Assembly: GCA_048938295.1 (NCBI GenBank)
Contig: JBHLMI010000009.1
Span: 1 to 22,519 of the forward strand
Reading direction: 5' to 3'
Source: Promethearchaeota archaeon
GTDB lineage: Archaea; Asgardarchaeota; Hermodarchaeia; Hermodarchaeales; Hermodarchaeaceae
DNA: 22,519 nt
Positions 1 to 20,100 of the stretch are shown here, in pieces (position 1 is the stretch's first letter; each line of letters begins with the position of its first letter). The position numbers were made by a program, and so were the translations under genes. The notes under the pieces were generated by a model, which saw nothing but the letters and a program-made list of their open reading frames with translations, had not been told where the DNA came from and searched no databases.

Positions 1-804
1 AACCTGGAGGAAGCAAAACAAGCGCTTCGTGAATCAGTCATTCTACCTTTGCTGCGGCCCGACCTGTTTACCGGAGCAAGGCGTCCGTGGAAAGGCGTAT
101 TAATCTTCGGCCCACCGGGCTGTGGCAAGACCCTGATCGCCAAAGCGGTGGCAAATGAAGCGGGTTGTACCTTCTTTAACGCGGATGCGGCGTCACTCGT
201 TTCGAAGTGGCTGGGTGAATCTGAACGGTTGGTAAAGAATCTCTTTGCATCAGCCCGAAAAGAGCAGCCAGCGATTGTGTTTATGGATGAAGTCGATGCG
301 TTAACCGCTGAACGTGGCGCAGATCAGGTTGGTGGTGAGCGGCGGCTGAAAACTCAGTTCTTGATTGAGATGGATGGGATGAAGAGCAAGAAAGATGATC
401 ATATCGTCGTCTTGGGTGCTACAAACCGTCCGTGGGATCTGGATGCGGCGTTTCGTCGACGCTTTGAGCGACGAATTTTGGTGCCGATTCCTGAATTTGA
501 GGCCAGGGTGCGGATTTTTGAGATTCATACCAAGGGTATTGATTTAGCGCCGGATGTGGACTTTAACTTCCTCGGTGAGAAGACCGATGGATACGCGGGA
601 TCGGATATTGCGCTCATTTGCCGGGAGGCGTCTCTGCAACCCGTTCGTGAATTGGACGCATCGGGTGCCATTCGTGATAAAGAAGTCATGGCGCGGGCGG
701 TGAATCTGCAAGATTTCCTTGAGGCTTTGCAGAATATTCGTTCGGTCGTGTCGCCGGAAGAGCAAGCCCGGTATATTGAATGGGATAACACGCATGGTTC
801 ATAG
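1..804 (+). CDS. vps4: Vps4-family AAA+ ATPase (ESCRT-III disassembly), 5'-truncated by the window edge
   Basis: Frame is open from base 1 (NLEEAKQALRESVILPL...). Walker A GPPGCGKT, Walker B IVFMDEVD, pore loop SKWLGESE, SRH GATNRPWDLDAAFRRRFERRI, Vps4-like C-terminal helix. Adjacent to ESCRT-II/I genes. Confidence 0.9.
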   Translation, partial: NLEEAKQALRESVILPLLRPDLFTGARRPWKGVLIFGPPGCGKTLIAKAVANEAGCTFFNADAASLVSKWLGESERLVKNLFASARKEQPAIVFMDEVDALTAERGADQVGGERRLKTQFLIEMDGMKSKKDDHIVVLGATNRPWDLDAAFRRRFERRILVPIPEFEARVRIFEIHTKGIDLAPDVDFNFLGEKTDGYAGSDIALICREASLQPVRELDASGAIRDKEVMARAVNLQDFLEALQNIRSVVSPEEQARYIEWDNTHGS

Positions 805-815
805 GGGAACAAAAC

Positions 816-1544
816 GTGTCGAAGGAAAAGCCCCGGGAACGGGTGAAAGAGAAGGAGAAAGATGAGCTTCGTGCAGATGTAGAGCTCACGGAAGAAGACT
901 GGTTAGACCTTCTCAAGAAGACCCGTGAACATATGAAAAGCGTGGAAGAAGAAGACGAAACGGCAGTCCTGGTCTTGCCGGTTACCGAAGAGGAAGAAAA
1001 ACAGCTTGAGGAATTGGCCCATCAAGTGGTGGAAAAACTCGGTCGCCGGTTTGTATGGATTGCGAAACGTGGTCGGTACGGGTTCATGTTTGTTATTCCC
1101 ACCTCCGAATCTGATATCGTTCAATGGGGTGCAGAATGGGCGGGGTTTACCGTTGATTATTGCCGTGAAATGCTATTACACATCGTTTCGACGCGCACCC
1201 TAGTCATGTTGGATCCCTTCAATGACATCCGCCCAGATCGGGTAAAGGCCGTGAAGATTATCCTCGACGTACTTGTAAAAGAAGAACTTGGACGCTGGAT
1301 TGATGAAGCGGAAGGGATTGTCCGAATCACCTGGAAAACGGATGATGAATGGGCAAACGAGATTAGACAGTGGGCTTTGAAAACAGGAAGAACTACCTTT
1401 ACACTCTTTAAACTGAAAGAACACCGAAGAGATCTTGCCAGCTTGCCTAAATCCGAGCTACGGATTATTCTTGAGCGCCTTGTTGAGAGGAAACAGGCAA
1501 AATGGTTAGACCGGGAACGCGAAGTAGTCGAAGTCCTCGTCTAA
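816..1544 (+). CDS. vps25: ESCRT-II subunit Vps25 (EAP20) homologue with N-terminal charged extension
   Basis: QWGAEWAGFTVDYCRE resembles Vps25 QLAAWCSLVLSFCR; ITWKTDDEWANEIRQWA resembles IMWRRPEEWGKLIYQWV; TFTLFKL resembles VFTLYEL. Tandem winged-helix layout. GTG start with AGGGG RBS, 11 bp after vps4. Confidence 0.88.
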   Translation: MSKEKPRERVKEKEKDELRADVELTEEDWLDLLKKTREHMKSVEEEDETAVLVLPVTEEEEKQLEELAHQVVEKLGRRFVWIAKRGRYGFMFVIPTSESDIVQWGAEWAGFTVDYCREMLLHIVSTRTLVMLDPFNDIRPDRVKAVKIILDVLVKEELGRWIDEAEGIVRITWKTDDEWANEIRQWALKTGRTTFTLFKLKEHRRDLASLPKSELRIILERLVERKQAKWLDREREVVEVLV

Positions 1545-1562: not shown

Positions 1563-2297
1563 TTATTCTGCGGGATTGAGTCCTGGGAAGAAGTACCGTT
1601 TTCCGTGTACGAAGGACTCGTCGATTTTAGCAGCTCCGACTGATTCGAAGCTTTTCAGGGCAGCGTCGGCTCGTTCTTGCGACCAATTAGTTTGGGTCAT
1701 CACTTCTTCCAGGGTGGTGTAGCCTGACCGACTAGCGATGGAGAGGACTGCAACTTGGTCGTTAGTGAGTTCTCGTGGGACTAGTTCGGCAATCCGGATT
1801 CCTGATGGGAGTTTTCGAATGCCTGGAATGAGTTTTGCACTCGCAAGGTTCTGGATGGCTTTCGCGATATCGACTTGAGAAACACTCGCCCTTCGTTGTT
1901 TATTAACAATTAGAACAATTTCCGCTAGCGTCATGATTCCCCCTGTTGCGTCACGTCGCCGCTTGGCTATGTCAAGAATCTGGAGACCGAGTTCGTCATA
2001 GAAGCGTCCGCGACCGGTTAGGCGTTCCATTAACCCGGGCTTTTCTTTCATGTCTTCGGAGAAGGGAATGCCAGGCATGGTAATACCGAGTTCGTGTGCA
2101 ATAGCGGCAGCCTTCTCACTATATTCGGGTGACACTTCGATAAATTCCCCATAGGTTTGCTCAAAGGCGTCAGCTTTATCGCGAAGTTCTGAAATAGTTT
2201 GGAGCATATGCTCGAGTTCTTTGAGCATGAGCTCGACACGTTTCTTCTTGTAGGCAGCATCCATTTCCATTTGTTTTTCGATTTCCCAAAGTCCCAT
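1563..2297 (-). CDS. vps22: ESCRT-II subunit Vps22/Vps36 (EAP30/SNF8-like)
   Basis: Aligns along its length to SNF8: FYDELGLQILDI vs FYYELGVQIIEV; GGIMTLAEI vs GGLITLEEL; VSQVDIAKAIQNL vs VSQDDLIRAIKKL; VPRELTNDQVAVL vs VPAELNMDHTVVL; C-terminal YFFPGL. GGAGG RBS. Confidence 0.92.
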   Translation of the reverse strand: MGLWEIEKQMEMDAAYKKKRVELMLKELEHMLQTISELRDKADAFEQTYGEFIEVSPEYSEKAAAIAHELGITMPGIPFSEDMKEKPGLMERLTGRGRFYDELGLQILDIAKRRRDATGGIMTLAEIVLIVNKQRRASVSQVDIAKAIQNLASAKLIPGIRKLPSGIRIAELVPRELTNDQVAVLSIASRSGYTTLEEVMTQTNWSQERADAALKSFESVGAAKIDESFVHGKRYFFPGLNPAE

Positions 2298-2310: not shown

Positions 2311-2604
2311 TCATATTTGTCGGATGTAGTTGAGCCAGGTTTCAGCTCGCATCGCGAATCGTCGCGCTTCTAATTCCTCCACATGTTGGGTGAGATTGGC
2401 ACCATATTTTGACAAGAAGTATTCATACCATTCCTGGGCTTCTTGGGTTACCGGGTGATTGGGACCGAGCATTGCTTCCGCAAAGGCAGCGACCACATCT
2501 AAATCTTCAAGAATATATTCAGCATTGATGCGCAGATTCGCTTTATTGATAGCGTTCACCAACCGTTCGCGCATTTCTGCAAAGGAACGCATTGGGTGTA
2601 CCAT
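2311..2604 (-). CDS. Small helical protein; putative stand-alone Vps28 C-terminal-domain paralogue
   Basis: In the operon between vps28 and vps22 (19 and 13 bp gaps). Manual alignment to the C-terminal domain of the adjacent Vps28: [16 protein letters not shown] vs [30 protein letters not shown] vs [14 protein letters not shown]. Confidence 0.65.
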   Translation of the reverse strand: [97 protein letters not shown]

Positions 2605-2623: not shown

Positions 2624-3271
2624 TTATTCATCAGCCGCCATCTCTCGGAGTCGTCGCTTGAAATCATTCAGCCATCGGACCGCTTGAAATTCCAGCTGTT
2701 TGGCTTCTTCTGGTGAAAGGGGTTCCTGAGGGTCGCGGTCTTGCAGCTGGTTCCGCCAATCTTTGAGGGCTATCAATATCCAATATTGTGGTGGAAAGTT
2801 TGGATACTTTGTCAAGAGGATGATGGCATCATCCAGGAGAGGTACAATAAGGCTCATTTTTGCAACGTCGCCGAGTTTGGCGATATCAATGAGTGTGATA
2901 AGATCCGAGACAATATCGGCGGTTTTCGCAGCCATTCGGGCAGAAGTTTGGGGGGCTAGTTTTATAGTTTCTTCTCCTTCAGGAGCCCGTTGTTCAAGTT
3001 GGAGTTTCTCGACCGCGGTGGGAAACCGTTCGACAATCTTTTCATCCTCGACGAACTCGTCCCAACTTTCGCCCTCAGCCTCAAGCATTTGACGTGTCTT
3101 AATGGTATCTCGAACAAGTGATTTGAATTGACGTTTGTATAGTGCGGGTTGAAGATCGCCCTCATCGAACTTCTCAGAGATGCTGTCAAGGGTTGCTATC
3201 GTGCCATAGAGTTCTGCTTCTAATTCAACAACCTTAACCGGTTTGGGTCGTTTTTTTTCACGCACTGCCAT
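2624..3271 (-). CDS. vps28: ESCRT-I subunit Vps28, full length (N-terminal core plus C-terminal four-helix bundle)
   Basis: [27 protein letters not shown] resembles [43 protein letters not shown] resembles ADVVSLFITVMDKLRL; FPPQY..W resembles LPPDF..W. ATG at 3271 follows a GTGAT RBS-like motif (the ORF track extends to GTG 3280). Confidence 0.9.
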   Translation of the reverse strand: [215 protein letters not shown]

Positions 3272-3295
3272 AGCAATCACTTCTGAATGACTGGC

Positions 3296-4114
3296 TTATT
3301 GGTATTTTTCAAGCGCTTTGTCGATTTGGTAGAGCCGTTTCTTGTATCGCTTGTACAACTTGGTGTATTCGGTAGAGGTAATTTCTGCCGCATCAAACTT
3401 CTGTTCAAGATTCTGCAAAAGGTCAGAGATGGCTAGCTTCTCACTCTCAAGCTCAAGCTTCTCTCTTTCTTTTGCATCAGCTGGAAGAATCAGATTATCT
3501 AGTTCTTCTTCGTCTGTTACTTCTCCAGTAGTTAAGGAGCCAGTGTCGATTTGAGCAGACATTCGGGCGAGTTGTTCATCACGGTCCTGTACTTTCTTAG
3601 TAAGGCGTGAGACTTCGCGTTCAAGTTGCTGATAGCGTTGTTGGAGGACTTCCTCTTCTGGAGGCATTGTAACCTTGGGGGCTTCTCGGGTTGCATCTGG
3701 CACAGGAGGTTCGCGGGCGAAAAGGCCCTTAATACTATTGACCACCTGGTAGACGTGATAATGAGGTTGCCATTGAGTGACTATTCGAAGATGAATAGCT
3801 CCAGACTCAGAGTCGACCCGAGGATGCTTGGTTGGAGCAAGCATTCGAGCAACTGGTGGTTGAGCTGGAAAGTTTGCAGGGACAATAATCTCGACGAGAA
3901 ACTCGTCTTTACCCCGTGGTCCACCCTTAATCTTCCCACGCCAACGACGGAGATTGGACTCAACAGGTGCAAAGGTGGGTGCACGACGATACATTAGCTG
4001 GGCTTCGCGTGCAATCGCCAATTCTGTTTGACTTCTCATAGCCTGTGCCATTGAAACACACCATGATATCTGTTTGAATTCTTCCTGTGAGAGCGGGCAT
4101 TTAATCTTTGGCAC
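3296..4114 (-). CDS. vps23: ESCRT-I subunit UEV-Vps23 (TSG101-like): inactive E2 fold, coiled coil, steadiness box
   Basis: E2 fold (FPAQPP, HPRV) with the catalytic Cys replaced by His (GAIHL). Central coiled coil. C-terminal LAISDLLQNLEQKFDAAEITSTEYTKLYKRYKKRLYQI resembles the TSG101 steadiness box. The true start may be ATG 4051. Confidence 0.88.
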   Translation of the reverse strand: MPKIKCPLSQEEFKQISWCVSMAQAMRSQTELAIAREAQLMYRRAPTFAPVESNLRRWRGKIKGGPRGKDEFLVEIIVPANFPAQPPVARMLAPTKHPRVDSESGAIHLRIVTQWQPHYHVYQVVNSIKGLFAREPPVPDATREAPKVTMPPEEEVLQQRYQQLEREVSRLTKKVQDRDEQLARMSAQIDTGSLTTGEVTDEEELDNLILPADAKEREKLELESEKLAISDLLQNLEQKFDAAEITSTEYTKLYKRYKKRLYQIDKALEKYQ

Positions 4115-4134: not shown

Positions 4135-4671
4135 TTATGTTGAACTACTCTTAGTCTTCTTCTTGGACAGCACATTCTTTTTAGGCGTTTCCGCTTTAAC
4201 GGCTTGTCGGACGGTAATCAAGATATTTCCTTGAAGTTCGCGGAGAAATTCTTCAAACCGCGTTTCAAAGAGCGTGACCATTTCCTCAAGTCGCTGCACG
4301 GCCTGGGTCAAGGTGGGAACAAGTTCCTTCTGCAGTTCCCGTAATTCCTTGGAACCTGATTCGGGTTTGCTTTTCGCAACTTTATCCATAGTCTTCTCAA
4401 AGTCCTCAAAACGGTCGACTAACACGCCCAACCGTTCAACTGAAGACTCCGACGCAATGGTATCATCAGCTACCAACTTCTGTAGTGTTTTGACCTCCCG
4501 CAGGAGGGCCCGAATATTCGCCTCCATCTTTAGATTCATCCGTCCAAGGTCAGAATCGAGTAAGTTCAAACCTTTCACTATACGCTTCAGAGACTCAACA
4601 GTAGGGACTAACCCCTTAGGCGTTTTGATGGCTTCAATTTCTATCGCATACTTTGGTGGATCAGCGGACAC
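4135..4671 (-). CDS. Uncharacterised coiled-coil protein, first gene of the ESCRT-I/II operon
   Basis: 178 aa, GTG start, heptad-like helical stretches, Lys-rich C-terminal tail, 20 bp upstream of the UEV-Vps23 ORF. No family recognised. Confidence 0.7.
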   Translation of the reverse strand: MSADPPKYAIEIEAIKTPKGLVPTVESLKRIVKGLNLLDSDLGRMNLKMEANIRALLREVKTLQKLVADDTIASESSVERLGVLVDRFEDFEKTMDKVAKSKPESGSKELRELQKELVPTLTQAVQRLEEMVTLFETRFEEFLRELQGNILITVRQAVKAETPKKNVLSKKKTKSSST

Positions 4672-4871
4672 GGTTCAAGTAACCCCCGAAGCTCTCGTTC
4701 AAGTTTACTCACCTCAGACTTTTAAGCTTTAATTTGGATGGTGAAAAAATTCGAAAAGACTAGGCTTTTACGAAAAATCCAGAATCACACTCAGGGTTGC
4801 CGCATTTCCATAGTTTTTTAAGAACGCATCTAGAAGAAAAGCCCAAGCGGAACCGAATAAGGGGCCTTGCC

Positions 4872-5123
4872 ATGGCACAAGCAGCTGGACGGTTTGTCAT
4901 TTCATCGGTGAAAGAAATTGGCCGATGGGATTGGACCCAATCCACTGACATGTGTTGTGTCTGTCGGCTCCAAATCCGTGATGGTGAACAAATGGTCCAT
5001 TGCCCGCATTGCGGGAATCCTGCCCATTATCGGCATCTAGCAGAATGGGTAAAGATGAAAGGCTCTTGTCCCATCTGTCGGAACCGCATCAACATACGAA
5101 GGTTGAAACCGGTTAGAAAATAG
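4872..5123 (+). CDS. Small RING-finger E3 ligase, Rbx1/Apc11-like N-terminus
   Basis: C-x2-C-x12-C-x2-C-x4-H-x2-H-x3-W-x6-CPxC. First gene of a RING-Ub-E2-E1 cluster. ATG at 4872 preferred over the ORF-track start at 4797. Confidence 0.85.
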   Translation: MAQAAGRFVISSVKEIGRWDWTQSTDMCCVCRLQIRDGEQMVHCPHCGNPAHYRHLAEWVKMKGSCPICRNRINIRRLKPVRK

Positions 5124-5135
5124 TCGGTGGTTAAA

Positions 5136-5372
5136 ATGCGAATAGAAGTTGTACCAGCGATTGGTGGCAGTGACCCCATTGCTCTTGAAGTTGAACCAAA
5201 CACAACGGTTGGAGAGATTCGGAACCGTGTGGCTCAAATGCGCCGGATACCGCCTAACATCGTTATCCTTGCATATCGTGGAGCCCAACTGACCGATGAA
5301 CAGACAATCAAGAGTGTTGGCATCACGCCCCACGATAAACTGTACCTCATTACGAGGACAGAGGGCGGCTAG
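5136..5372 (+). CDS. Eukaryote-type ubiquitin-like modifier ending in Gly-Gly
   Basis: Aligns without gaps to ubiquitin L15-G76 (LEVEP, IPP, L.Y.G.QL.D, L.L..R..GG). About 30% identity by hand. The stop codon follows GG directly. An alternative GTG start lies at 5127. Confidence 0.93.
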   Translation: MRIEVVPAIGGSDPIALEVEPNTTVGEIRNRVAQMRRIPPNIVILAYRGAQLTDEQTIKSVGITPHDKLYLITRTEGG

Positions 5373-5569
5373 GACAAGCAAAACCTAACGGTTTCGATCT
5401 CAGTCGCCCCCCTCTTTTCTCTTCATTACGTAGAATTGGTACCTGATTCATTCTGCGTTTGCCTTGAGCAAATGAAATTTCTACTACTACCAACCGAAAA
5501 GGTATTTACGACAAACGCAATTGGTAAGTGTAATGGGGACCGGCTTATCTAGGCAGAGGCGCTGTCCAC

Positions 5570-6031
5570 ATGTTATCAGAAGACGATTATTGGGCAAGAT
5601 TAGCCCTTGAAGCAAAGAACATGGAAACCGAGGAACCATCGTTCCAGCCAATCCAAGGTGATCTCCGGCGATGGCGCGGATTTATACTGGGCACTGGCAT
5701 CTACGATAATGGCGTCTTTGTTGTACAAATCAATGTTCCCCGATCATTCCCCTATGAACCTCCACAGGTACAATTTATCACTCAGATATGGCATCCCAAT
5801 ATCTACAGGAGCCGAGTCTGTGTAGGGATTTTGGGAAAAGATTGGCTCCCCAGCATGTCACTTACAGGTGTAGTAGAAACGCTTCGAAATCTGTTAAATT
5901 TCCCCAATCCTGACGATCCTTTGAATCAACGGGCATCACGGGAAGCAAAGCAGAACCCAGTGGCCTTTGAACGTACGGCTAGAGATTGGGTTAAACGCTT
6001 TGCTGGTTGGGATCAAATACAACGAGGATGA
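5570..6031 (+). CDS. Ubiquitin-conjugating enzyme E2
   Basis: FPYEPPQVQF, HPNI followed by the active-site Cys (RVCVGIL), W.P..S, LLNFPNPDDPLN: the canonical UBC signature. Confidence 0.95.
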   Translation: MLSEDDYWARLALEAKNMETEEPSFQPIQGDLRRWRGFILGTGIYDNGVFVVQINVPRSFPYEPPQVQFITQIWHPNIYRSRVCVGILGKDWLPSMSLTGVVETLRNLLNFPNPDDPLNQRASREAKQNPVAFERTARDWVKRFAGWDQIQRG

Positions 6032-7071
6032 AATTAGCCATGGATGAGCAGGTCGTCGAACAGAAAAAGAAGGTCCCTGTGTATCATGGCACCGAGAGAT
6101 ATGCTCGTCAATTACTCCTTAATGAATGGAATCAAGAAAAGCTCTCAGAGTCAACTGTTGTTGTAGCCGGTATGGGAGCATTAGGCACAATCATTGCCTT
6201 GGATTTGGTTCTCACTGGAGTCGGCAAGGTCGTATTAATTGACTTTGATACAATCGAATTATCAAATCTAAGTCGTCAATTCTTATATCATGACGAAGAT
6301 GTAGGTAAAGCAAAGGCTGTCGTTGCGGGCCAACGGCTTCGTGAAATGAACCCAGATGTACAGGTACTTGCTTTAAATTGCACAATTCAGGATGTGCGTC
6401 ACTCCATATATGAGGAGGCGGACTTGATTGTTGAGGGGCTTGATACCTTTGAAGCCCGACGATGGCTAAACTCACTTTGCGTCCAGAAGAACAAGGTCCT
6501 CATCCATGGTGGCATGTATGGTTGGTGGGGGAATGTTCAACGTGTAGTTCCCTTCGAAACCGCCTGTTTGGAATGCCAACCACTGGTGCCTGCTGAACGC
6601 CTACAAAAAGCTTGTACACCTCCAGGAAAACGTAGAAAAGTAGAAGAACCACTGCCTAAGTTCCCCGCACTCCTGAGCGTCGCCACCATAATAGCAGGAA
6701 TTCAGTTTCAAGAAGCTTTGAAACAACTTCTAAGGGTAGGATCGCCTCTTGACAATTACCTCTTTTATGACAGTCTTCACCAGCAGTTCACAATTCTGAA
6801 ACTCGCCCGTAACCCCAATTGCTTTTTGTGTAGCGATCGATTCCGCCTGGAAGGGGAAATATACGCAATAGGGCGGAAAGAGACTGTGGCAGAATTGAAA
6901 AACAGATTAATCATGACCTTTGGAATGCAAGATCCCAAGATTATCTTGCGTGGAAAAGTCTTATTTGACGAACAGGTCTTTGGAAAACTCCGGATGAAGG
7001 ACAAAGAACCACTTTTCATCATTGATACTGCATTAGCACAACCGTTGAAACTGCTAGCTGTCTTTAAATAA
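6028..7071 (+). CDS. Ubiquitin-activating enzyme E1 (ThiF/UBA adenylation domain, catalytic Cys, C-terminal ubiquitin-like domain)
   Basis: RYARQ, GMGALG, DFDTIELSNLSRQFLY, GKAKA, Zn-binding CLEC and CFLC, putative catalytic Cys in KACT. Start overlaps the E2 stop codon (ATGA). Confidence 0.93.
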   Translation: MKLAMDEQVVEQKKKVPVYHGTERYARQLLLNEWNQEKLSESTVVVAGMGALGTIIALDLVLTGVGKVVLIDFDTIELSNLSRQFLYHDEDVGKAKAVVAGQRLREMNPDVQVLALNCTIQDVRHSIYEEADLIVEGLDTFEARRWLNSLCVQKNKVLIHGGMYGWWGNVQRVVPFETACLECQPLVPAERLQKACTPPGKRRKVEEPLPKFPALLSVATIIAGIQFQEALKQLLRVGSPLDNYLFYDSLHQQFTILKLARNPNCFLCSDRFRLEGEIYAIGRKETVAELKNRLIMTFGMQDPKIILRGKVLFDEQVFGKLRMKDKEPLFIIDTALAQPLKLLAVFK

Positions 7072-8070: not shown

Positions 8071-10965
8071 ATGATTGATTCTAAAGAGATTGAGCCAAAG
8101 TGGCAAATGCGATGGCGCGAAGCTCAGGCATTTGAAGCAGATCCTAATCCACAACGCCCTAAATTTTATCTAACTGTTCCTTACCCGTATGCCAACGCAC
8201 CGATGCACGTGGGACACGGTCGAACCTATACAATCGGGGATATTATTGCTCGATACAAACGCATGCGTGGTTTCAATGTTCTGTGGCCTATGGCGGCCCA
8301 TGTAACTGGAACGCCTGTAGCAGGAGTGGCAAAACGAATCCGAGACAAAGACCCAGTCATTTTGAAAGAATATCGCACCAGTATTGGATTTTATCGACCA
8401 AAGAAAGACATTGAATCGGTATTGGCAACCTTTACGGACTTGAAAGCCATTGCACAATTTTTTACCAATGTCTTTGAAAGCGACTTCCGAAAACTAGGCT
8501 ATTCAATTGATTGGCGGCGCAAATTCACCACAGACGATCCCGAATACCACGCCTTCGTAACCTGGCAGTTCATCAACCTGCAGAAACTCGGATATATTAC
8601 CAAGGGTAAATATCCCATCCTCTATTGTGTGTCCTGCGGAAACGCCGTTGGCGAAGATGACTTACTGAAAGGCGAAACTGCAAAAGTAGCCGAGTTTGTG
8701 GCAATTAAATTCCCCTTCGAAGATGGATTCTTAGTTGCAGCAACTCTACGCCCAGAAACAGTATACGGCGTAACTAATGTCTGGATCAATCCAGCGGGCG
8801 ATTATTCGAAAATACAGGTTGACGAAGAAATCTGGTATGTATCTAAACCTGCAGTCCGAAAACTGGTAAACCAAGGCTACCGTTCAAAACGAATAGAGGA
8901 AATCCCTGGAATGGAATTCATCGGAAAGACCTGCAAATCACCAGTTGACGAGCGAGAGCTATTAATTCTACCAGCTGAATTTGTGGATCCTGACAATGGC
9001 ACCGGAATCGTTTACAGTGTTCCCTCTCACGCCCCATTCGACTGGATCGCACTACATGATATCCAGCAGACAAAATCCGCAATTCACGGTTTCAAACTCG
9101 ATTTTGATGCTATAAAAGCAATCGAACCTATCTCCATCATTACAATCGAAGGTTATAGCGAACACCCAGCCATCGAGTTAACTGAGAGAATGAAAATTAA
9201 GAACCAAAAAGCAACTGCAAAACTTGACGAAGCTACAGAGACGCTCTACAAAGCAGAGTACTATCAAGGCATCATGAAAAGTAATACGGGACCATTTGCT
9301 GATCGAAAAGTGAGCGATATCAAAGAAGAGGTCATTAACTATCTTGAAAATCAAGGGCGAGCTTTTCGATTCTATCAACCTGACCAGAAACCGGTCATCT
9401 GCCGATGCGGAAATGAAGTCGTTGTTGCAGTCTTGCCAGATCAGTGGTTTCTCAACTATGGCAATCCTGAATGGAAAGCAAAAGCAACAAAGGCTTTAGA
9501 CCAAATGCTCATTTATCCTGAGGTGTATCGTAAGCTATTCGAATCCACCTTTGATTGGTTAAAACAGCGTCCAGCAGCACGAAAACGTGGTTTGGGAACC
9601 AGATTACCCTTTGACCGAAAATGGGTCATTGAATCGCTTTCTGACTCGACAATCTACATGCTTTTCTACCTCATTATCGCTCATATCAGAGCTAACCAAA
9701 TAACGGCCCAGCAATTGGATTTAGCTTTCTTTGATTATGTTCTATTAGGAGAAGGGGCAATTGATAAGGTCGCTGAAAAAACTGGAATTCCCGAAGAAAC
9801 ACTTACAGCAATGCGATCAGAGGTCGAGTATTGGTATCCTAACGATCAACGACACACAGCGGTAGGACACATAACCAATCATCTTTCCTTCTTTATCTTC
9901 CACCATGCCGCATTATTCCCTGAACGATACTGGCCAAAAGCAATTACGATCAATGAATATGTTATTCATCAGGGTGAGAAGATGAGTAAAAGCAAGGGTA
10001 ATTTCATACCCATGGCTGATATTCCAAAACGGTATGGTGCAGATCTTTACCGCCTTTATATTACCCAAATAGGAGATCTACAAGCTCTTGTCGATTGGAA
10101 GGAGAAGGATGTTACCACCATACAACGTCGCATCAAACGGTTGACTAACATTCTGGAAGAAGGTGCAAAAATCCCTGAAATCACACTAGCTGAAACAAAA
10201 CTGAGCCTGATGAGCCGCTGGATTCTCTCAAGAATCAACACTGCAATCCAAAGGGCAACTGAAGCATTAGAACAGATGCACCTCCGAACGTATGCGATAG
10301 AAACGTTCTTTCAACTACTAGCGAATGTCGAATTCTATTTGCGGCGTATGAAGAAAAACAGTACCGAATATAATGCCGTCTTACGTTATATTGTCATTCG
10401 ATGGGTGAAATTACTCGCCCCAATCATGCCTCATTTAAGCGAAGAGATCTGGGAACAACTAGGCAGCATTTCATTCGTCTCTCTTGAAGCCTGGCCAACA
10501 TCCGAAGAACAATTCATCGATGAAAAAATCGAGAAAGCAATGGACGTCGTGCAACATACCATTTCAGACATCAAAGAAATCAAAAAATTGCTAAAAGGAA
10601 AAGATGTGAGCACTGTTCAGATTTTTATCAGCCCTAGTTGGAAGTACACGGCATTGAAGAAAGTGACGAAAGCTAAAGCAGCCCCCACAGTTCAGGAGTT
10701 AATGCCGATTTTAATGAAGGATGCCAAATTCAAGAAACGTGGAAAGGAGGTCAATGAGCTAGTTCAAGCCATTGCCAAGGCAGGAGGGTTTTGGACATTC
10801 GTTGATAAAACAACGGAAACCACGGCACTTTCTGAAAACCGTGACCTAATTGAGTCAGAAACTGGATTTAAAGTGAACATTCAAGATGGCGACAAACCCG
10901 TTAAGGATCCGGAAAACCGGGCACCAAAAGCGTTACCAGGCCGTCCAGCGCTCTTCTTAGAGTAA
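8071..10965 (+). CDS. leuS: Leucyl-tRNA synthetase, archaeal/eukaryotic type
   Basis: PYPYANAPMHVGH (HIGH motif), KMSKSKGN, CP1 editing motifs ATLRPETVYG and GTGIVYSVPSHAPFD, IESLSDSTIY, archaeal C-terminal PGRPA. Confidence 0.97.
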   Translation: MIDSKEIEPKWQMRWREAQAFEADPNPQRPKFYLTVPYPYANAPMHVGHGRTYTIGDIIARYKRMRGFNVLWPMAAHVTGTPVAGVAKRIRDKDPVILKEYRTSIGFYRPKKDIESVLATFTDLKAIAQFFTNVFESDFRKLGYSIDWRRKFTTDDPEYHAFVTWQFINLQKLGYITKGKYPILYCVSCGNAVGEDDLLKGETAKVAEFVAIKFPFEDGFLVAATLRPETVYGVTNVWINPAGDYSKIQVDEEIWYVSKPAVRKLVNQGYRSKRIEEIPGMEFIGKTCKSPVDERELLILPAEFVDPDNGTGIVYSVPSHAPFDWIALHDIQQTKSAIHGFKLDFDAIKAIEPISIITIEGYSEHPAIELTERMKIKNQKATAKLDEATETLYKAEYYQGIMKSNTGPFADRKVSDIKEEVINYLENQGRAFRFYQPDQKPVICRCGNEVVVAVLPDQWFLNYGNPEWKAKATKALDQMLIYPEVYRKLFESTFDWLKQRPAARKRGLGTRLPFDRKWVIESLSDSTIYMLFYLIIAHIRANQITAQQLDLAFFDYVLLGEGAIDKVAEKTGIPEETLTAMRSEVEYWYPNDQRHTAVGHITNHLSFFIFHHAALFPERYWPKAITINEYVIHQGEKMSKSKGNFIPMADIPKRYGADLYRLYITQIGDLQALVDWKEKDVTTIQRRIKRLTNILEEGAKIPEITLAETKLSLMSRWILSRINTAIQRATEALEQMHLRTYAIETFFQLLANVEFYLRRMKKNSTEYNAVLRYIVIRWVKLLAPIMPHLSEEIWEQLGSISFVSLEAWPTSEEQFIDEKIEKAMDVVQHTISDIKEIKKLLKGKDVSTVQIFISPSWKYTALKKVTKAKAAPTVQELMPILMKDAKFKKRGKEVNELVQAIAKAGGFWTFVDKTTETTALSENRDLIESETGFKVNIQDGDKPVKDPENRAPKALPGRPALFLE

Positions 10966-10969
10966 CTTA

Positions 10970-11161
10970 TTAGGCAACACGCCGACCAAATTGCTGAACT
11001 TGCTCCTCACCTTCATTCAAGGAAAACTCATGTTGGCAACGAGGGCACTTAGCAAAACCACATTTCCCCAAAGTTGCCGAGGGACAACTACCACAGGCCA
11101 TTATGCGACCATAACTAGTGTCGAATTGAAAACCACATTGAGGACATGTAACAACCGTCAT
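10970..11161 (-). CDS. Small Cys-rich putative metal-binding protein
   Basis: 63 aa from ATG 11161 with seven Cys (CPQC, CGSC, C, CPRC). Lies directly downstream of the metal-binding lipoprotein-family gene. Confidence 0.65.
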   Translation of the reverse strand: MTVVTCPQCGFQFDTSYGRIMACGSCPSATLGKCGFAKCPRCQHEFSLNEGEEQVQQFGRRVA

Positions 11162-11217
11162 CTTTGAATCGACTTCGAGGCATCCTTCCCAAACTGTGTA
11201 AAAAGGATTTCGGACAG

Positions 11218-12288
11218 TTAGTCCCGTGCGCGAGAACAACGAATTAACAGAACAAGTTCGATAATAACCAGAAAGGCAAGCACTGCAGCTAAGATGATGA
11301 CTGGCATACTAATCGAAAGGAAATCTGCGGCGGGGGGAATACCCACACTGACGCCGGTAGTGATGACACCGATATTATAAGCCATTATTCCCACATAATC
11401 TTCGAGTATGGAAAATATGGCACGTATCCATACTAGTGGAACCCCAGAGTCAGCTGAAAGTTGCTGAGCAAATTCACCAGCAGCTTGAAGTTGGGCGACA
11501 TCAGAAGCTAATATGAGATCGATTGATCCATTTCGTAATGTCTGTTCAACAGCTAAGAGTTCAGGACCTGAAATGAAGACGTTTTCACTTTCCATTAGCA
11601 ACCCCTTAACTTGGAGACCTAGGGTTTCGGCTATGTAGGCTTCTGCAGGAAAGGTAATAATCACTTTCTTGTTGGACAGCTGATACAACAGGTTCTGTTC
11701 CGAAACAAAGGTTTCAAAATCAGAGACTTTGGTGACAAACTCTGTGAACCGGTTTTCCCAATATTGCGTGTACGTCGAGTTTAGCGAGGCGCAAAGGTTA
11801 CGTGTCGCATTGGCAATAGCTATGGCATTTTGAGGTAGAAGCCAGTACCCATGCAGGTTTTCGTTTTGATCATGCTGTTGACTGCTAAGAAATAATGGGG
11901 ATTGAACACTTACATGCCCAAATAGTGGAAGAAGCATGGCACCAAAATTTTCATAATCCCCCAAGGTGACATACGGCTTTCCGACTTGTGTCGCGAGTTC
12001 TTCTTCCCAGTTAAAATGCCCGGTTAAGACTAGCATATCTGCAGCATTTGCTGCATCAATAACTGATTGGGTAAGTGAGAAGGCGTGTGGTTCAATACCT
12101 TCAGGAAGCAGAACAGCAACATCAGCCTGCACACCACCAACTTCTCGAACAATCCCAGCTAGAGGTTGTATGGAAACGGCTATACGCAGCGCTGGAGGTG
12201 ATTGGGCGGAGGTGTTAGGGAAACCACCAATTACTCCGAAGGTTACCAATAGGATTCCAAAAACCACTACTAATTGCTTTTCTCGCAT
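11218..12288 (-). CDS. Zn/Mn-type ABC transporter substrate-binding protein (ZnuA/PsaA family) with C-terminal membrane anchor
   Basis: N-terminal hydrophobic signal, SIQPLAGIVREVGG, GIEPH, NLHGYWL, hydrophobic C-terminal helix. ATG 12288 follows a GTGAT RBS-like motif. Confidence 0.85.
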   Translation of the reverse strand: MREKQLVVVFGILLVTFGVIGGFPNTSAQSPPALRIAVSIQPLAGIVREVGGVQADVAVLLPEGIEPHAFSLTQSVIDAANAADMLVLTGHFNWEEELATQVGKPYVTLGDYENFGAMLLPLFGHVSVQSPLFLSSQQHDQNENLHGYWLLPQNAIAIANATRNLCASLNSTYTQYWENRFTEFVTKVSDFETFVSEQNLLYQLSNKKVIITFPAEAYIAETLGLQVKGLLMESENVFISGPELLAVEQTLRNGSIDLILASDVAQLQAAGEFAQQLSADSGVPLVWIRAIFSILEDYVGIMAYNIGVITTGVSVGIPPAADFLSISMPVIILAAVLAFLVIIELVLLIRCSRARD

Positions 12289-12342
12289 AGCAATCACATC
12301 CTTGTGGGCATTATGAAAGGTTATTAACTTCTATGCCATTTC

Positions 12343-12365
12343 TTATTAATCCCGAATATTAATAA
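12343..12365. promoter_or_regulatory. Inverted repeat TTATTAAT-N7-ATTAATAA in the divergent promoter; candidate operator or back-to-back TATA elements
   Basis: Exact 8-bp inverted repeat. TTATTAAC also occurs at 12321 and 12380 in this AT-rich intergenic region. Confidence 0.35.
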
Positions 12366-12409
12366 TCTTATTGGTATTTTTATTAACAGTAACGCCCTAC
12401 GGTGATTCT

Positions 12410-12802
12410 ATGTCCATAATTAGTATTTCAGTAAACGAACAAGATCTGCAAACGCTCGACCATTTACAATCATCAGGAGGCTTTGCCAATCGTTCAGAAC
12501 TATTTCGCCAAGCTGTTCGGACGTTAGCCAGCGAGCTCCAAGAGATTGAGACCATCACCGGCAAAGTATCCGCCGTAATAACAATCGTATATGGAAAGAA
12601 AGGAAAGGGCATTGAGAGCAACTTTCTCCTTCACCGCCAGGCAAGCCTCATTGACGCTTTACTCCACTCTCACACGGTAAACGGCGAGTGCGTGGAAGTT
12701 GTCGTAGTGAACGGCCCAGCTAGCGAAGTGCGTGAGTTGGTGAGAACGCTGAAGGGAAACCGAAAAATCGTCCAGGTAAAAGTAGCCATTATTGGAGTGT
12801 AG
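12410..12802 (+). CDS. nikR: NikR-family ribbon-helix-helix metal-responsive regulator
   Basis: N-terminal RHH (IISISV...NRSELFRQAV), ACT-like C-domain with His, HSH and ECVE matching NikR H76/H87/H89/C95. GGTGAT RBS before ATG 12410. Confidence 0.85.
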   Translation: MSIISISVNEQDLQTLDHLQSSGGFANRSELFRQAVRTLASELQEIETITGKVSAVITIVYGKKGKGIESNFLLHRQASLIDALLHSHTVNGECVEVVVVNGPASEVRELVRTLKGNRKIVQVKVAIIGV

Positions 12803-12809
12803 ATAACCG

Positions 12810-13616
12810 ATGGCAACAACTCCTTTGATCGAAGCTGAACATTTAGCAGTGAAATACCCCAACGGCGACCTCGCCCTTGAGGATGTCACCTTTTCAATTG
12901 ATCCTTCAACATTTATGGCTATTATCGGACCGAACGGATCAGGAAAAACTACGCTTTTAAAGACAATGCTCGGCCTGCTTAAGCCTACCGAAGGGTCACT
13001 TCGAGTCATGGGTCTGGATACTAGGAAGGCATATCGTAAAATTCGGCACATGGTTCGGTATCTGCCACAGCGTGACGAAATTGAAGCAACAGTTCCAATG
13101 AAGGTCAAAGACATCGTATTGATGGGGCGACTCTTGAAGAAGCCTCCATTACGTTTGGCTTCTAAGAAGGATGTAGATTTTGCTAAAGACGCATTACGAC
13201 GCGTTGATTTAATGGATCTTTGGAACCATCCGTTTCCTGAATTGTCTGGAGGACAACGCCAGAGAGTACTAGTGGCACGAGCTTTAGCCGCAGAAGGACA
13301 AATAATGATGCTTGATGAACCGATGTCAGGGGCAGACCATGATAGTCAGGTGAAAATCGTTGAAGCCCTCAAAGAGTACTATGATGAAAACCAAGTTAAC
13401 ATCATCATGGTGACCCATGATCTGAATCCAATCCACACTGTGGTAAAAGATGTTCTTATGCTGAATCGTAGGGTCATGGGAATTGGACACCCCTGCGCAG
13501 TCATGGACCTTGAACTCTTGAAACAGGTCTATGGACCCACAGCAAAAATCGTCGAAATGGCAGGACACAAATACTGCATAACAGGTGACTCGGGGTTCGA
13601 CCGCCATGATCATTGA
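12810..13616 (+). CDS. Metal ABC transporter ATPase (ZnuC/MntA family)
   Basis: GPNGSGKT, YLPQ, LSGGQRQR, LDEP, VTHDL; His/Cys-containing C-terminal tail. Confidence 0.93.
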   Translation: MATTPLIEAEHLAVKYPNGDLALEDVTFSIDPSTFMAIIGPNGSGKTTLLKTMLGLLKPTEGSLRVMGLDTRKAYRKIRHMVRYLPQRDEIEATVPMKVKDIVLMGRLLKKPPLRLASKKDVDFAKDALRRVDLMDLWNHPFPELSGGQRQRVLVARALAAEGQIMMLDEPMSGADHDSQVKIVEALKEYYDENQVNIIMVTHDLNPIHTVVKDVLMLNRRVMGIGHPCAVMDLELLKQVYGPTAKIVEMAGHKYCITGDSGFDRHDH

Positions 13617-14457
13617 TGCCTTTTACCTCATTCTGACCTCACCTATTATTCAACGTGCATTGATCGCGTCCATTCTGGTAGCGATTATTGCAGCTACATC
13701 CGGGACCTTCATGGTATTCCGTGGATTATCATTTCTCACTGCAGGCGTTGCGCATGCCGCGCTGGGAGGAGTAGCTTTAGCGTTGTTTTTGCAGGCTACA
13801 GCTATTGCACCATGGTTTGATCCGATTTTAGGAGCTGTCATTTTTGCAGTCTTTGTCGCTGTGCTAACTGCTTATGCAGGTGAACGAGGAGTTTCCCAAA
13901 AAATGGAAGTGGCTGTGGGGGTCTCCTTTGCGCTTTCCATGAGCATCGCTGTATTTTTGATGTACTATTTACCCCCCACGCTGGTTCCCGTCATCTGGGG
14001 ATATTTAATCGGAGATATCCTTCTATTGGACAACTTGGACATCGTCCTTTTACTGGGGGTTGCTCTATCCCTTGTAACCCTTTTCACCCTCTTCAAGAAA
14101 GAATTCGTATACATCAGTATTGATATGGAAGGATCAACCGCGCATGGTATGAACGCACGAGCCTACAACTATCTCCTCCTGATATTCGCGGCTATCGCCA
14201 TTGCCCTAACCATAAAGGCAGTGGGGGCAATTCTCGTTTATGCCATTCTCATTGCGCCTGCTGCTGCTTCAAATGAAGTGATGAAGACAGTCAACAACGT
14301 CATTATTGGCACCTTCGTCTTGGCACTCGTAGCGATGTTTCTTGGGCTAGCGGGTTCATTTAATCTCAATGCCTCGCCCAGCGCAATTGCAGGAATTATC
14401 GCTGCCCTCTCCTATATCATCGCAATTCAAGTGAAGCGATACATGCGGTCAAAATAG
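13606..14457 (+). CDS. Metal ABC transporter permease (ABC-3, ZnuB/MntB family)
   Basis: FLTAGVAHAALGG, YLIGDIL, KAVGAILVYAILIAPAA; multiple TM segments. Overlaps the ATPase stop. Confidence 0.93.
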   Translation: MIIDAFYLILTSPIIQRALIASILVAIIAATSGTFMVFRGLSFLTAGVAHAALGGVALALFLQATAIAPWFDPILGAVIFAVFVAVLTAYAGERGVSQKMEVAVGVSFALSMSIAVFLMYYLPPTLVPVIWGYLIGDILLLDNLDIVLLLGVALSLVTLFTLFKKEFVYISIDMEGSTAHGMNARAYNYLLLIFAAIAIALTIKAVGAILVYAILIAPAAASNEVMKTVNNVIIGTFVLALVAMFLGLAGSFNLNASPSAIAGIIAALSYIIAIQVKRYMRSK

Positions 14458-17136: not shown

Positions 17137-20100
17137 TTAGCCGAAAAAGGTATCCAGTCTACGCATTCCTATGGTATCCAACCATTCAATACCTAAGGCA
17201 TCAAGGACCTGTTCAAAGGTACTTTTCACCAAGTCTTTGTATTTTGATACATCAATATCCTGGGCGGTAGCTTGCTCTACAGGCTTCACTCCGTCAGTTG
17301 TTTTGACAAAAGCGATGATATCTCCCGCTGTCACTTCTTTTCCGGCTTTTTGGAGCTGCGTAGCCGCCTTGACATGTTGCGGAGTAGTTTTGGTGTAAGC
17401 GCTGAGATTCTTCGTGAGTTGCACCCGAATGGCAAGATCTTCCACATCAAATTCGCGACGGTCCAACATTGTTAACTTATCCCTGGCAAGTTGGAGGATT
17501 CGTTTTTTCGCAGAGGCAAAACCATCAGGGTCACGAACCTGACTTAGGATATCTATCATCTCCATAAACGCCTTCTGTAAAAATAGGGGTGTATTCCGTT
17601 TCTTCCCCGTCAAGCCCTTAATATCAACCTGACCATCCTTTGACACCCCCAGATAATTCTTCTTCCTACTAGACAAGGCAACATACCGGTACTCCTTTTC
17701 AACATCCAGCTCCACCCTCAGTTCCTTCTCGCTATAATCAATGAGCCGTTTCAACTGATCGTTAGTGGGATTATCCAAAAACAGGCTGTCAGTATCCCCA
17801 TAAAGCACCGTAACTCCCAGCTCTTCCGCTTTCTCGATCGTCTGAGTGATTGCGTATCGACCAAGGGCCGTTATTGACTCCGCTGCAGGAGCGCAGTAGA
17901 GAGGGAAATGCGAAGCCCCAAGAACACCGTAGCTGTTGTGGGTCACAACCCCATTCGTTGTGACAAACCAGCCATTACCAGTCTCTATGTCGAAGACTTT
18001 CTGGGTGTCAGATTCAATTTCAATCGATTTGACTCGAACAAGATTCGTCCCGTTGAAATCCATTAGCCCCTGATATTTCCTTGTATAGTTCTTGCCCTTT
18101 GTTTCCACAATTCGAGTAATATCAGAATCCCTATGGAGCGAAGTAAATCTCCCAAGTGCACTTAGGAGGAAAAGCAAATCCCTAACTAGTTGTTGGCTAG
18201 CCGTACTATATCGGCGACTTCCCTTTAAGGTGAAGTTTCCATCGCCCTTGAAGTAGGATTTCAACAAAACTTCTGCTCGTGTTTTATTCAGAAGCGATAA
18301 GGGCAAACGCTTGTTTACTGCATGGGTTCCACATAAAGTGCATATGACTGAGGAAATCACATTGGAATGAACAGTGATTGTCTTATCGCTATAAAAGACC
18401 GCAGGCCAGCCTAATTGTTTTAGAAGAGAAAGGATTTCAGCAATGTTTTCTGGATTCTTTTCGAAAGATTGAGTTAATGAAAATCTGTTTTGCTGCCCGT
18501 GGCCCTCAGCGACATACCAACCTAATAACTGAAAGAATTCTTCTGAAAGTGGGATGCAGAGATCCTGCCAAAAACCAGGAGAACGATGGCTTCGTGCAAT
18601 CTTTGCAACAAGAAGACCAGGTGAAGTGTTCCGAATAACGTCTCTTTCTTCTTCAGAAAGATCATCCCAATACGCTTTGTATATCTTCTGGACTTTGCTA
18701 TATTCGAACTTTCTGTTGATTATTGTAATTAATTCATTATCTGTTTGCTGCCCTTTTCTGTAGGAGAATTGCTTGTATACACTTCTTTCCATCCCGATCA
18801 ATAGATTTGTGGAATCGATAAGATCAGGGATGAATATGCGGTCTGGAACTGGTTCTGTGAAAGGCATTTGACTGCATAGAAGCAGTTCATCCCCAGTTTT
18901 TAGTTCGCCTGCAGGAATTTCATCAATCCGGAATGTTTTGCCATACCGTCTTCCAGTTTGTGTAGTATAAATCGGAATAACATGGTTAGCCGTACAACGC
19001 AATTGCCTTCCATCACTGAGTGTTATCTTCAGTACCTTGGCTTTTCCGGTTTCTGCGAACCCTTTTATCGGAACAAATATCGGTGTGCCAAAATGCCCAT
19101 TATTCGCATTAGCATTAATTGATAAAACCTCAAGACCTGCCCAACAATCTTTCAGTGACGCAATTTCTCGCTTCTGAACCTGCCCCGTGGGAGTGCGAAT
19201 GATGACTTCCTCATTAGAGGGTAAACACGCGTTGAGAAACACTTTGAGTGCTTGTTCTACGACGCTGAACCAGCTGCGTTGGGCGGGTTCGAGGGTTTTG
19301 TCTTTGGCTCTCGGTTTGAAGTGTTCGACCCGGACGTCGCGTATTAATCCGATGATGAGGCTGGTGATTCCTTCGCGCCTTGTGCACACCCAGTGGGGCG
19401 TGTCGGGAACGAGGTTGTCTTTGCATTCAGGATGATCGCAGCGCACGGTTTCATAGCTGAGATTGTAGGCCTTCATGATACTCGGATAGAGGCTATTTCC
19501 AGTAACAGCAGGTTTACCATTTCTTCGCGCAATAATTGTTCCATTGGGTACAGAAACGCACCATACTTTTCCTTGATAGGGGAGCCTCCAAATCCGTTGT
19601 CTTTGCCCAGAGAATACGTTCTGTCGAAAATAACTTAGAAATGCCCGATAGCTTTCATGGTTTCTGTACACTTTTTCATCGATTTCACAATCATGTATTT
19701 CGTGTTTCACTTGACAACCATAACCCAACCGCAACGCTAATTCCTGAAATTCATCAACGAATCTCCTTGTTATCGAGCTGAATGAGTGGCATTTACCACG
19801 CGACCAACTTCCATCTCCTAGTAGCAAACTATCAAAAAGGAGCTGGAGGTGTTCCTTCTCAAAATTCAAGATTGTTCGAGGAATCCCCTTTCGTCGCCCT
19901 CCCAACTCATGATCTAACCAATTTCTTAGAGCATTAGCAAATTCTGAATCGTTTATGTCAAATCTATGATATTTTCGACCTTGACCACTTGTATACTCTT
20001 TTTCTGTAAATTTGAAACCAAGAAGATTAATCGAATTCCGTATATGTTGAAAGTTCTTTTCTTTAGACTGATGAATTCGTACAGAATATTTGTCGAAGGA

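Follow-up and report, generated by a model that had tools for sequence, protein, structure and literature searches.

Does a ubiquitin that stops at its terminal Gly-Gly, lacks every canonical chain lysine and carries alanine at the position of Ile44 represent a remodelled protein, or is this how ubiquitin commonly looks in its family? The question is raised by a gene at positions 5136 to 5372 of contig JBHLMI010000009.1 (assembly GCA_048938295.1), from a Hermodarchaeial member of the Asgard archaea; the window is the whole stretch of DNA that was analysed, 22,519 nucleotides in length. The initial annotation, made from the sequence alone, treated these features as unusual. Comparison with other Asgard orthologues does not bear this out, since the absence of Lys at the K6 and K63 positions, the rarity of Lys at K48 and the loss of Ile44 run through the family, and a stop directly after Gly-Gly is found in 20 of 55 orthologues. 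For an Asgard (Hermodarchaeota) cluster this is the usual ubiquitin gene, and its extreme lysine poverty alone is special to a few lineages. [quoted passage not shown]

Gene, start codon and register

The gene and the motif that precedes it are as follows.

5136 to 5372, plus strand: ubiquitin gene, 78 residues ending in RTEGG directly before the stop codon, assigned by translation, PF00240 and a fold model
5126 to 5130, plus strand: Shine-Dalgarno-like GGTGG motif, which serves the ATG at 5136 and holds an alternative GTG at 5127

The encoded protein scores 46.3 bits against PF00240 (cut-off 25.4) and is the only PF00240 protein returned by a profile search of the genome, so that the search for further ubiquitin paralogues suggested in the initial annotation yielded no second one. 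Ubiquitin and Rad60-SLD are the only profiles that it matches; the ThiS/MoaD profile PF02597 gave no match to it, which sets it apart from the SAMP and ThiS/MoaD type, and the five PF02597 genes of the genome all lie on contigs other than that of ubiquitin. The mature C-terminus, R74-T-E-G-G78, leaves Gly-Gly free for E1 and keeps the equivalent of Arg72. The only lysines are K59 and K68, residues 1 to 58 being free of lysine. With a ratio of nonsynonymous to synonymous substitution (dN/dS) of 0.012-0.024 within the genus and synonymous sites near saturation, the gene is under strong purifying selection.

A start at GTG 5127, which would add one Lys, was considered and rejected. The GTG lies within a GGTG motif that is found 6-12 nucleotides (nt) 5' of the ATG in all 15 aligned Hermodarchaeial loci, and in several Hermodarchaeial orthologues the reading frame is closed one codon 5' of the ATG; for these reasons the comparison of loci identifies ATG 5136 as the start. 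In one genus member (L009:1492-1734, L040:7992-8234) the ubiquitin ATG reads ATA and the only in-frame start is the GTG of the motif, which would add three residues, one of them Lys; a genuine shift of the start and a variant of the assembly are both conceivable explanations.

HMMER places residues 14-78 on residues 12-76 of ubiquitin without gaps, and MAFFT, aligning the protein with a eukaryotic unit, arrives at this +2 register as well, in which K27 corresponds to R29, K29 to R31, K33 to M35, R42 to I44, I44 to A46, K48 to A50, S57 to K59, K63 to P65, T66 to K68, H68 to Y70, V70 to I72, R72 to R74 and G75-G76 to G77-G78. The AlphaFold2 model of the protein (predicted local distance difference test, pLDDT, 92.5; predicted template modelling score, pTM, 0.81) has strands at residues 2-7, 15-18, 43-47 and 68-73 and a helix at residues 25-36, which are the elements of ubiquitin shifted by two. 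It superposes on eukaryotic ubiquitin over 74-76 residues at 1.2-1.4 Å, with Z of 14.3-14.7 and 33-34% identity, and its best structural match is the ubiquitin of Caldiarchaeum subterraneum (CsUb; 6FJ7), with Z of 15.4 and 49% identity over 78 of 78 residues. Against ubiquitin structures in general the fold is a beta-grasp (Z 14.3-15.4, root-mean-square deviation 1.2-1.8 Å, 74-78 residues). The sequence match is likewise closer to Caldiarchaeum ubiquitin (80 bits) than to a single eukaryotic ubiquitin (34 bits). No alternative register restoring Ile44 or Lys48 was found in the sequence alignments or in the structural model.

With eukaryotic ubiquitin (1UBQ) the protein shares the beta-grasp fold (1.2 Å over 76 residues), the LEVEP and IPP segments, R72 and the terminal GG, and by analogy it would work with E1, E2 and RING and be read by a UEV domain. 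It differs in that none of the seven lysine positions (K6/K11/K27/K29/K33/K48/K63) holds Lys, Ile44 is replaced by Ala, Arg42 by Ile, His68 by Tyr and Leu73-Arg74 by Thr-Glu, and its gene encodes neither a fusion nor a polyubiquitin. What it has instead are the marks of archaeal ubiquitin, namely a 78-residue mature form, an A-[IV]-G-G loop and an R-T-x-G-G end. Much of the initial annotation thus stands: the ubiquitin is encoded already mature, with the stop directly after GG, and needs no C-terminal processing; the gapless mapping K27R, K29R, K33M, K48A, K63P and I44A is reproduced by HMMER, MAFFT and structural superposition alike, and the alternative register that could have overturned it did not appear; the K6/K11 region is free of Lys; the only lysines lie at the equivalents of 57 and 66; and R72 and G75-G76 are kept. 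The additional Lys that it allowed for, from GTG 5127, falls away with that start.

Survey of Asgard orthologues

Orthologues were drawn from relatives, from named genome records and from 301 genomes sampled evenly across the phylum, and removal of duplicates left 55 unique sequences, which represent 33 genera and 21 families. A search with a 6-row alignment retrieves only orthologues with the [LCV]YLITRTEG motif and is therefore biased, which the phylum-wide genome search corrects; a single-protein search of representatives returned no archaeal relatives among the 150 matches listed, eukaryotic polyubiquitins dominating through their summed repeat units. A ubiquitin match was present in 130 of the 301 sampled genomes, two large families being nearly without one (0/76 and 2/68). 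The named relatives whose ubiquitin is 96-100% identical to the protein are Hermodarchaeota metagenome-assembled genomes, Ca. Hermodarchaeum yapensis among them.

None of the 55 sequences has Lys at the equivalents of K6 or K63, and Lys is found at the K48 equivalent in 16, at K29 in 6 and at K33 in 11. At the K27 equivalent 48/55 have Lys, and Arg is confined there to the two Hermodarchaeial genera and one further genus (f14g16). Lys is also found at the 57-equivalent in 36/55 and at the 66-equivalent in 49/55. At position 44 Val predominates (38 sequences), followed by Ala (12), with Ser and Thr in 2 each and Ile in 1. At position 42, where eukaryotes have Arg, every one of the 55 has a hydrophobic residue; position 68 is always Tyr or Phe, and the equivalents of R72 and T73 (R74 and T75) are invariant. 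In both a 17-sequence and a 33-orthologue alignment A8, G10, G11, R74, T75, G77 and G78 do not vary. By genus, 12 stop at GG throughout, 2 are mixed and 19 carry tails of 1-16 residues. At the position of Ile44, Thr46 has been reported in Caldiarchaeum ubiquitin (PMC5654768) and Val45 in Heimdall ubiquitin (PMC9192718). Judged from these 55-orthologue counts and the published Thr46 and Val45, the lack of canonical chain lysines, the lack of Ile44 and mature encoding are common states of this archaeal ubiquitin family, and most departures from eukaryotic ubiquitin would be ancestral to it and not adaptations of this gene.

The survey also returned a second, divergent ubiquitin paralogue in family f18 (L145 in G053, L146 in G044), which has DIEGG followed by a tail and AIGN for AIGG in the first loop. 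In L136 (G086:C11:56485-56712) the open frame around the ubiquitin orthologue spans 247 codons, which may point to a fusion at the N-terminus or to a long open frame upstream.

Closest characterised systems

Caldiarchaeum ubiquitin (6FJ7, 2MQJ, 6FNN; PMC5654768, PMC6043591) is the nearest relative among known systems. It shares the 78-residue mature form in one-to-one register at 49% identity, a beta1-beta2 loop longer by two residues (PA[IV]GG), the RTxGG end, a residue other than Ile at position 44 and an operon that also encodes E1, E2 and a small RING. CsUb, however, is made as an 87-residue precursor with Rpn11 within the operon, whereas the Hermodarchaeial gene stops at GG and the Rpn11 homologue, which has a tail anchor, is encoded away from it; on the surface of CsUb there are eight lysines, of which K4, K53 and K68 are ubiquitylated, against K59 and K68 only. 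The Caldiarchaeum operon is described as ubiquitin/E1/E2/RING/Rpn11, with no mention of adjoining ESCRT-I/II genes (PMC5654768, PMC6043591).

The Helarchaeial system (bioRxiv 10.1101/2023.07.25.550441) has the same neighbourhood of UEV-Vps23, coiled-coil protein, RING, ubiquitin, E2 and E1, and has been reconstituted biochemically. Its ubiquitin is a pro-ubiquitin (GG followed by SPKN) that keeps Lys at the K27 position and is about 47% identical to the Hermodarchaeial protein. Lu et al. showed that this pro-ubiquitin is conjugated via E1, E2 and RING, that Asgard UEV-ubiquitin pairs have micromolar affinity by surface plasmon resonance, and that the Helarchaeial UEV-Vps23 is mono-ubiquitylated at K201 (bioRxiv 10.1101/2023.07.25.550441). 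Among our orthologues L138 is a Helarchaeial-type ubiquitin with an SPKN tail, few lysines (three) and, like the Hermodarchaeial protein, Ala at the Ile44 position; since it has the same tail, we infer that it is the pro-ubiquitin of Lu et al. Ala at position 44 would accordingly seem to be tolerated, given that the tail of L138 matches that of a protein which is conjugated.

The ubiquitin of Heimdallarchaeota AB_125 (Hatano et al. 2022, PMC9192718) is a further Asgard ubiquitin whose hydrophobic patch is read by an ESCRT-I UEV domain, as the model described below predicts for the Hermodarchaeial one, and its V45D mutation abolishes UEV binding (PMC9192718). It has Val at the Ile44 position, against Ala here, and orthologues of the Heimdall type have a tail at the C-terminus and 5-7 lysines, against a GG-stop and two.

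The ubiquitin-ESCRT locus

The ubiquitin gene belongs to the ubiquitin-ESCRT supercluster of Asgard archaea, which includes the following genes.

1 to 804, plus strand: Vps4, ESCRT context
816 to 1544, plus strand: Vps25, ESCRT context
1563 to 2297, minus strand: Vps22/36, ESCRT context
2311 to 2604, minus strand: small ORF, ESCRT context
2624 to 3280, minus strand: Vps28, ESCRT context
3296 to 4114, minus strand: UEV-Vps23 (ESCRT-I), with UQ_con, UEV and Vps23_core matches, the predicted ubiquitin reader
4135 to 4671, minus strand: coiled-coil protein, no Pfam match, in several Asgard classes commonly found next to UEV-Vps23, RING and ubiquitin
4872 to 5123, plus strand: small RING E3, zf-RING_2 27.6 bits (cut-off 27.3), its stop 12 nt before the ubiquitin ATG
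5570 to 6031, plus strand: E2, UQ_con 113 bits, with the HPN motif and a catalytic Cys
6007 to 7071, plus strand: E1 of the ThiF family, ThiF 210.6 bits, with a ubiquitin-fold region at the C-terminus
downstream of E1: Yip1 protein

The composition of such clusters, including the coiled-coil protein, has been set out previously (bioRxiv 10.1101/2023.07.25.550441). The RING, E2 and E1 domains are intact and adjoin ubiquitin, as in an archaeal-type operon, and the E2 is the sole one found in the genome. Given the 12-nt spacing, RING and ubiquitin are probably co-transcribed. The spacer between ubiquitin and E2 (5373-5569) measures 197 nt, opens with a tract rich in C and T and occurs once in the genome; E2 and E1 may have a promoter of their own, and a scan of 4600-6100 for consensus promoters and terminators gave nothing above chance.

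The housekeeping genes that adjoin the cluster, at 8071-14457, encode a Leu/Ile/Val-type class I aminoacyl-tRNA synthetase (8071-10965), a binding protein similar to ZnuA (11218-12297, minus strand), a NikR-like regulator and a metal uptake system's ABC ATPase and permease. Further along the window (17137-22161, minus strand), an intein bearing a LAGLIDADG homing-endonuclease domain splits a 1674-residue family B DNA polymerase.

UEV-Vps23 as the candidate reader

In the mechanism that we propose, ubiquitin is translated already mature with Gly78 free, which can be read directly from the gene; the adjacent E1, E2 and small RING would activate and conjugate it, as their intact domains and the reconstituted Caldiarchaeum and Helarchaeial cascades suggest; the UEV domain of the ESCRT-I protein UEV-Vps23 is predicted to read the hydrophobic beta-sheet face formed by I44, A46, Y70 and I72; the two-lysine protein probably acts mostly as a single-unit tag; and a tail-anchored, unlinked JAB of the Rpn11 type probably removes it, being kept although there is no precursor to cut.

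The reading step was modelled as a complex of UEV-Vps23 residues 22-145 with ubiquitin, built from this analysis's own alignments of both partners. The complex scored 0.72, against 0.01 for the best of 3 controls; of 80 solved complexes 58 come up to the mark set for this score, as do 2 of 110 mismatched pairs. In three runs at least 90% of contacts agreed, with partner pLDDT of at least 87. On the ubiquitin side the modelled interface comprises residues 6, 8-9, 44, 46-53, 68 and 70-76 and is centred on the Ile44-equivalent face (I44, A46, Y70, I72), and on the UEV side it comprises residues 27-56, that is the N-terminal helix and the next loop, with the conserved motif AREAQLMY and the invariant L55. 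The model supports binding of ubiquitin by UEV-Vps23 through the Ile44-equivalent face, and it agrees with the suggestion of the initial annotation that the altered hydrophobic patch serves as the reading face, although its score may reflect, at least partly, a likeness to solved UEV-ubiquitin complexes. Co-variation between ubiquitin position 46 and UEV residue 35, sought by eye in the UEV orthologue alignment, gave an inconsistent pattern: Tyr at residue 35 accompanies Ala46 in the Helarchaeial (L059) and f2g3 (L021, L027) sequences, and Hermodarchaeia have Ala at both.

JAB deubiquitinases

The initial annotation had noted that the window holds no JAB gene, and a profile search indeed finds no JAB domain on the contig; the genome search that the annotation recommended, made on an assembly that is 91.6% complete, returned three JABs on other contigs, one of them of the Rpn11 type, so that the absence does not extend to the genome. 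Searches for OTU and USP deubiquitinases gave no matches in the genome, the control genomes being equally silent.

The first JAB (G000:C1:53435-54124, minus strand; L002:1135-1827, minus strand) has 230 residues and an intact HxHx7Sx2D motif, and matches Caldiarchaeum Rpn11 (6FJV) with an E value of 1.6e-28, followed by CSN5, Rpn11 and AMSH; by sequence it is assigned as the orthologue of Caldiarchaeum Rpn11. It ends in a hydrophobic helix of 20-25 residues (19-residue Kyte-Doolittle mean 2.8), and a similar hydrophobic C-terminal segment occurs in 27 of the 30 JAB orthologue loci examined, which come from Hermodarchaeia and from eight further families of the phylum; the paper on Caldiarchaeum Rpn11 makes no mention of a membrane (PMC6043591). 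A search of 18 other Hermodarchaeial genomes recovered this JAB from every one of them, and most other GG-stop lineages among the searched relatives also keep one of the Rpn11 type. Since it is retained where no precursor exists, and CsRpn11 cuts precursor and conjugates alike (PMC6043591), a deconjugating role for the Rpn11-type JAB may be proposed.

The second JAB (C9, L072:1423-3185; 151 residues) resembles the SAMP-specific JAMM1 (5LDA), adjoins a proteasome alpha subunit, has two ORFs of 228 and 118 amino acids upstream and is probably a SAMP protease. The third (C16, L080:3-2896; 207 residues) has no sequence match in the PDB, overlaps a 287-residue ThiF-like E1 and adjoins, with that E1, a 475-residue transglutaminase-like protein; these genes may form a separate ubiquitin-like conjugation or defence-type module. 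The genome holds four ThiF-type E1s and five genes of the ThiS/MoaD type in all.

In other archaea SAMPs are ubiquitin-like tags for degradation, and together with the JAMM1-like JAB beside the proteasome subunit this raises the alternative that the present tag serves mainly proteasomal or AAA-unfoldase degradation and not ESCRT sorting. We regard this as highly improbable, as the ubiquitin operon lies within an ESCRT-I/II/Vps4 locus, the proteasome-linked JAB is like JAMM1 and unlike Rpn11, the Rpn11-type JAB is predicted to be membrane-anchored, and the modelled UEV complex passes its controls.

Lysine poverty: single units, chains or drift

With two Lys and seven Arg, the lysine share K/(K+R) of the protein is 0.22, against 0.48 for the proteome, which places it at about the 4th percentile of proteins. 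Among the 55 ubiquitins only those of the sister Hermodarchaeial genus and of Sifarchaeum also have two lysines. In the sister genus K68 is replaced by Val, leaving K59 as the only Lys common to both genera. The Arg at the K27 position has been kept through near-saturated synonymous divergence. In eukaryotic ubiquitin K27 pairs with Asp52; the equivalent of the latter, D54, is invariant in the 17-sequence alignment and conserved in at least 90% of the 33 orthologues, and Arg would be a conservative replacement. The lysine poverty is suggestive of selection for a single-unit tag, and a role mainly as mono-ubiquitin fits, by analogy, the mono-ubiquitylation of the Helarchaeial UEV-Vps23 at K201.

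Several observations weigh against the favoured reading. The lysine deficit is not significant (binomial P 0.11 with nine basic residues), and two or fewer lysines are found in 37% of the proteome's 78-residue stretches. CGN codons, two steps from Lys, make up 83% of the genome's Arg codons; they may entrench Arg once it is acquired, and the lysine poverty possibly reflects such entrenchment. By analogy with CsUb chains are possible, because K68 is a CsUb linkage site and K59 is kept in both Hermodarchaeial genera. The modelled UEV surface is unlike the beta-hairpin tongue by which eukaryotic Tsg101/Vps23 contacts ubiquitin, and the pose may be wrong. Finally, the C1 JAB is connected with ubiquitin by homology only.

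The statistics just given would also support an account in which lysine poverty and Ala46 are functionless lineage drift, in a family that tolerates exchange of K with R and of V, A, S and T, fixed by CGN arginine codons. Close relatives (P0008, P0009) and the sister genus have Lys at position 31, and position 46 varies among Ala, Ser, Val and Thr by lineage, as drift would have it. This account is possible but, in our view, doubtful. Atabeyarchaeia and one Heimdall genome have a similar base composition (GC) and K/(K+R) background and yet lysine-rich ubiquitins, so that composition alone does not explain the deficit; the K27-position Arg has persisted while most orthologues have Lys there; and the ubiquitin of Sifarchaeum, the other lineage with two lysines, likewise stops at GG.

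Chains may instead be built through the non-canonical K68 or K59 or the N-terminal amine, and be what the ESCRT reader sees. Ubiquitin-ubiquitin linkages of CsUb, detected in vitro by mass spectrometry, involve K4, K53 and K68 (PMC5654768); K68 of the Hermodarchaeial protein corresponds one-to-one to CsUb K68, while the K4 and K53 positions are Glu4 and Thr53, and the frequency of Lys at the 57- and 66-equivalents among Asgard orthologues also speaks for such chains. Since K68 is Val in the sister genus, however, it is not essential family-wide, and in the model it lies inside the UEV interface. CsRpn11, the nearest characterised homologue of the C1 JAB, is without the Ins-2 that AMSH uses for linkage-specific chain cleavage (PMC6043591), and the product of the Helarchaeial reconstitution is mono-ubiquitin (bioRxiv 10.1101/2023.07.25.550441). 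Chains built in this way and read by ESCRT are rather unlikely on this evidence. Of the two uses named in the initial annotation, a mono-ubiquitin tag or non-canonical chains, the first thus fits the Helarchaeial system, and the identity of K68 with a Caldiarchaeum linkage site keeps the second possible.

A stronger version of the single-unit reading would have Hermodarchaeia and Sifarchaeum arriving in parallel at an obligate single-unit ubiquitin, with the lysines purged (that at the K27 equivalent included) so as to keep the protein from modifying itself and forming chains, the gene shortened so as to free tagging from the need for a protease, and the Rpn11-type eraser anchored in the membrane. 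We hold this to be clearly unlikely; if true, it would amount to a minimal reversible membrane-sorting tag predating eukaryotic chain signalling.

Implications

For work on the protein itself, the survey has practical consequences. With two Lys and a free GG, the Hermodarchaeial protein is a handy natural near-lysine-free ubiquitin for reconstitution, in which K59 and K68 are the only candidate lysine sites for chains. Because residue 74 is Arg and residue 76 is Glu, the remnant expected after trypsin is TEGG and not GG, in parallel to the TVGG remnant of Caldiarchaeum ubiquitin (PMC5654768). As to the archaeal family, neither Ile44 nor the eukaryotic chain lysines K6 and K63 are ancestral to it, and their absence from one Asgard ubiquitin is therefore not to be taken as an adaptation. 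Ubiquitin-ESCRT clusters of Asgard archaea such as this one inform the reconstruction of the origins of eukaryotic membrane sorting.

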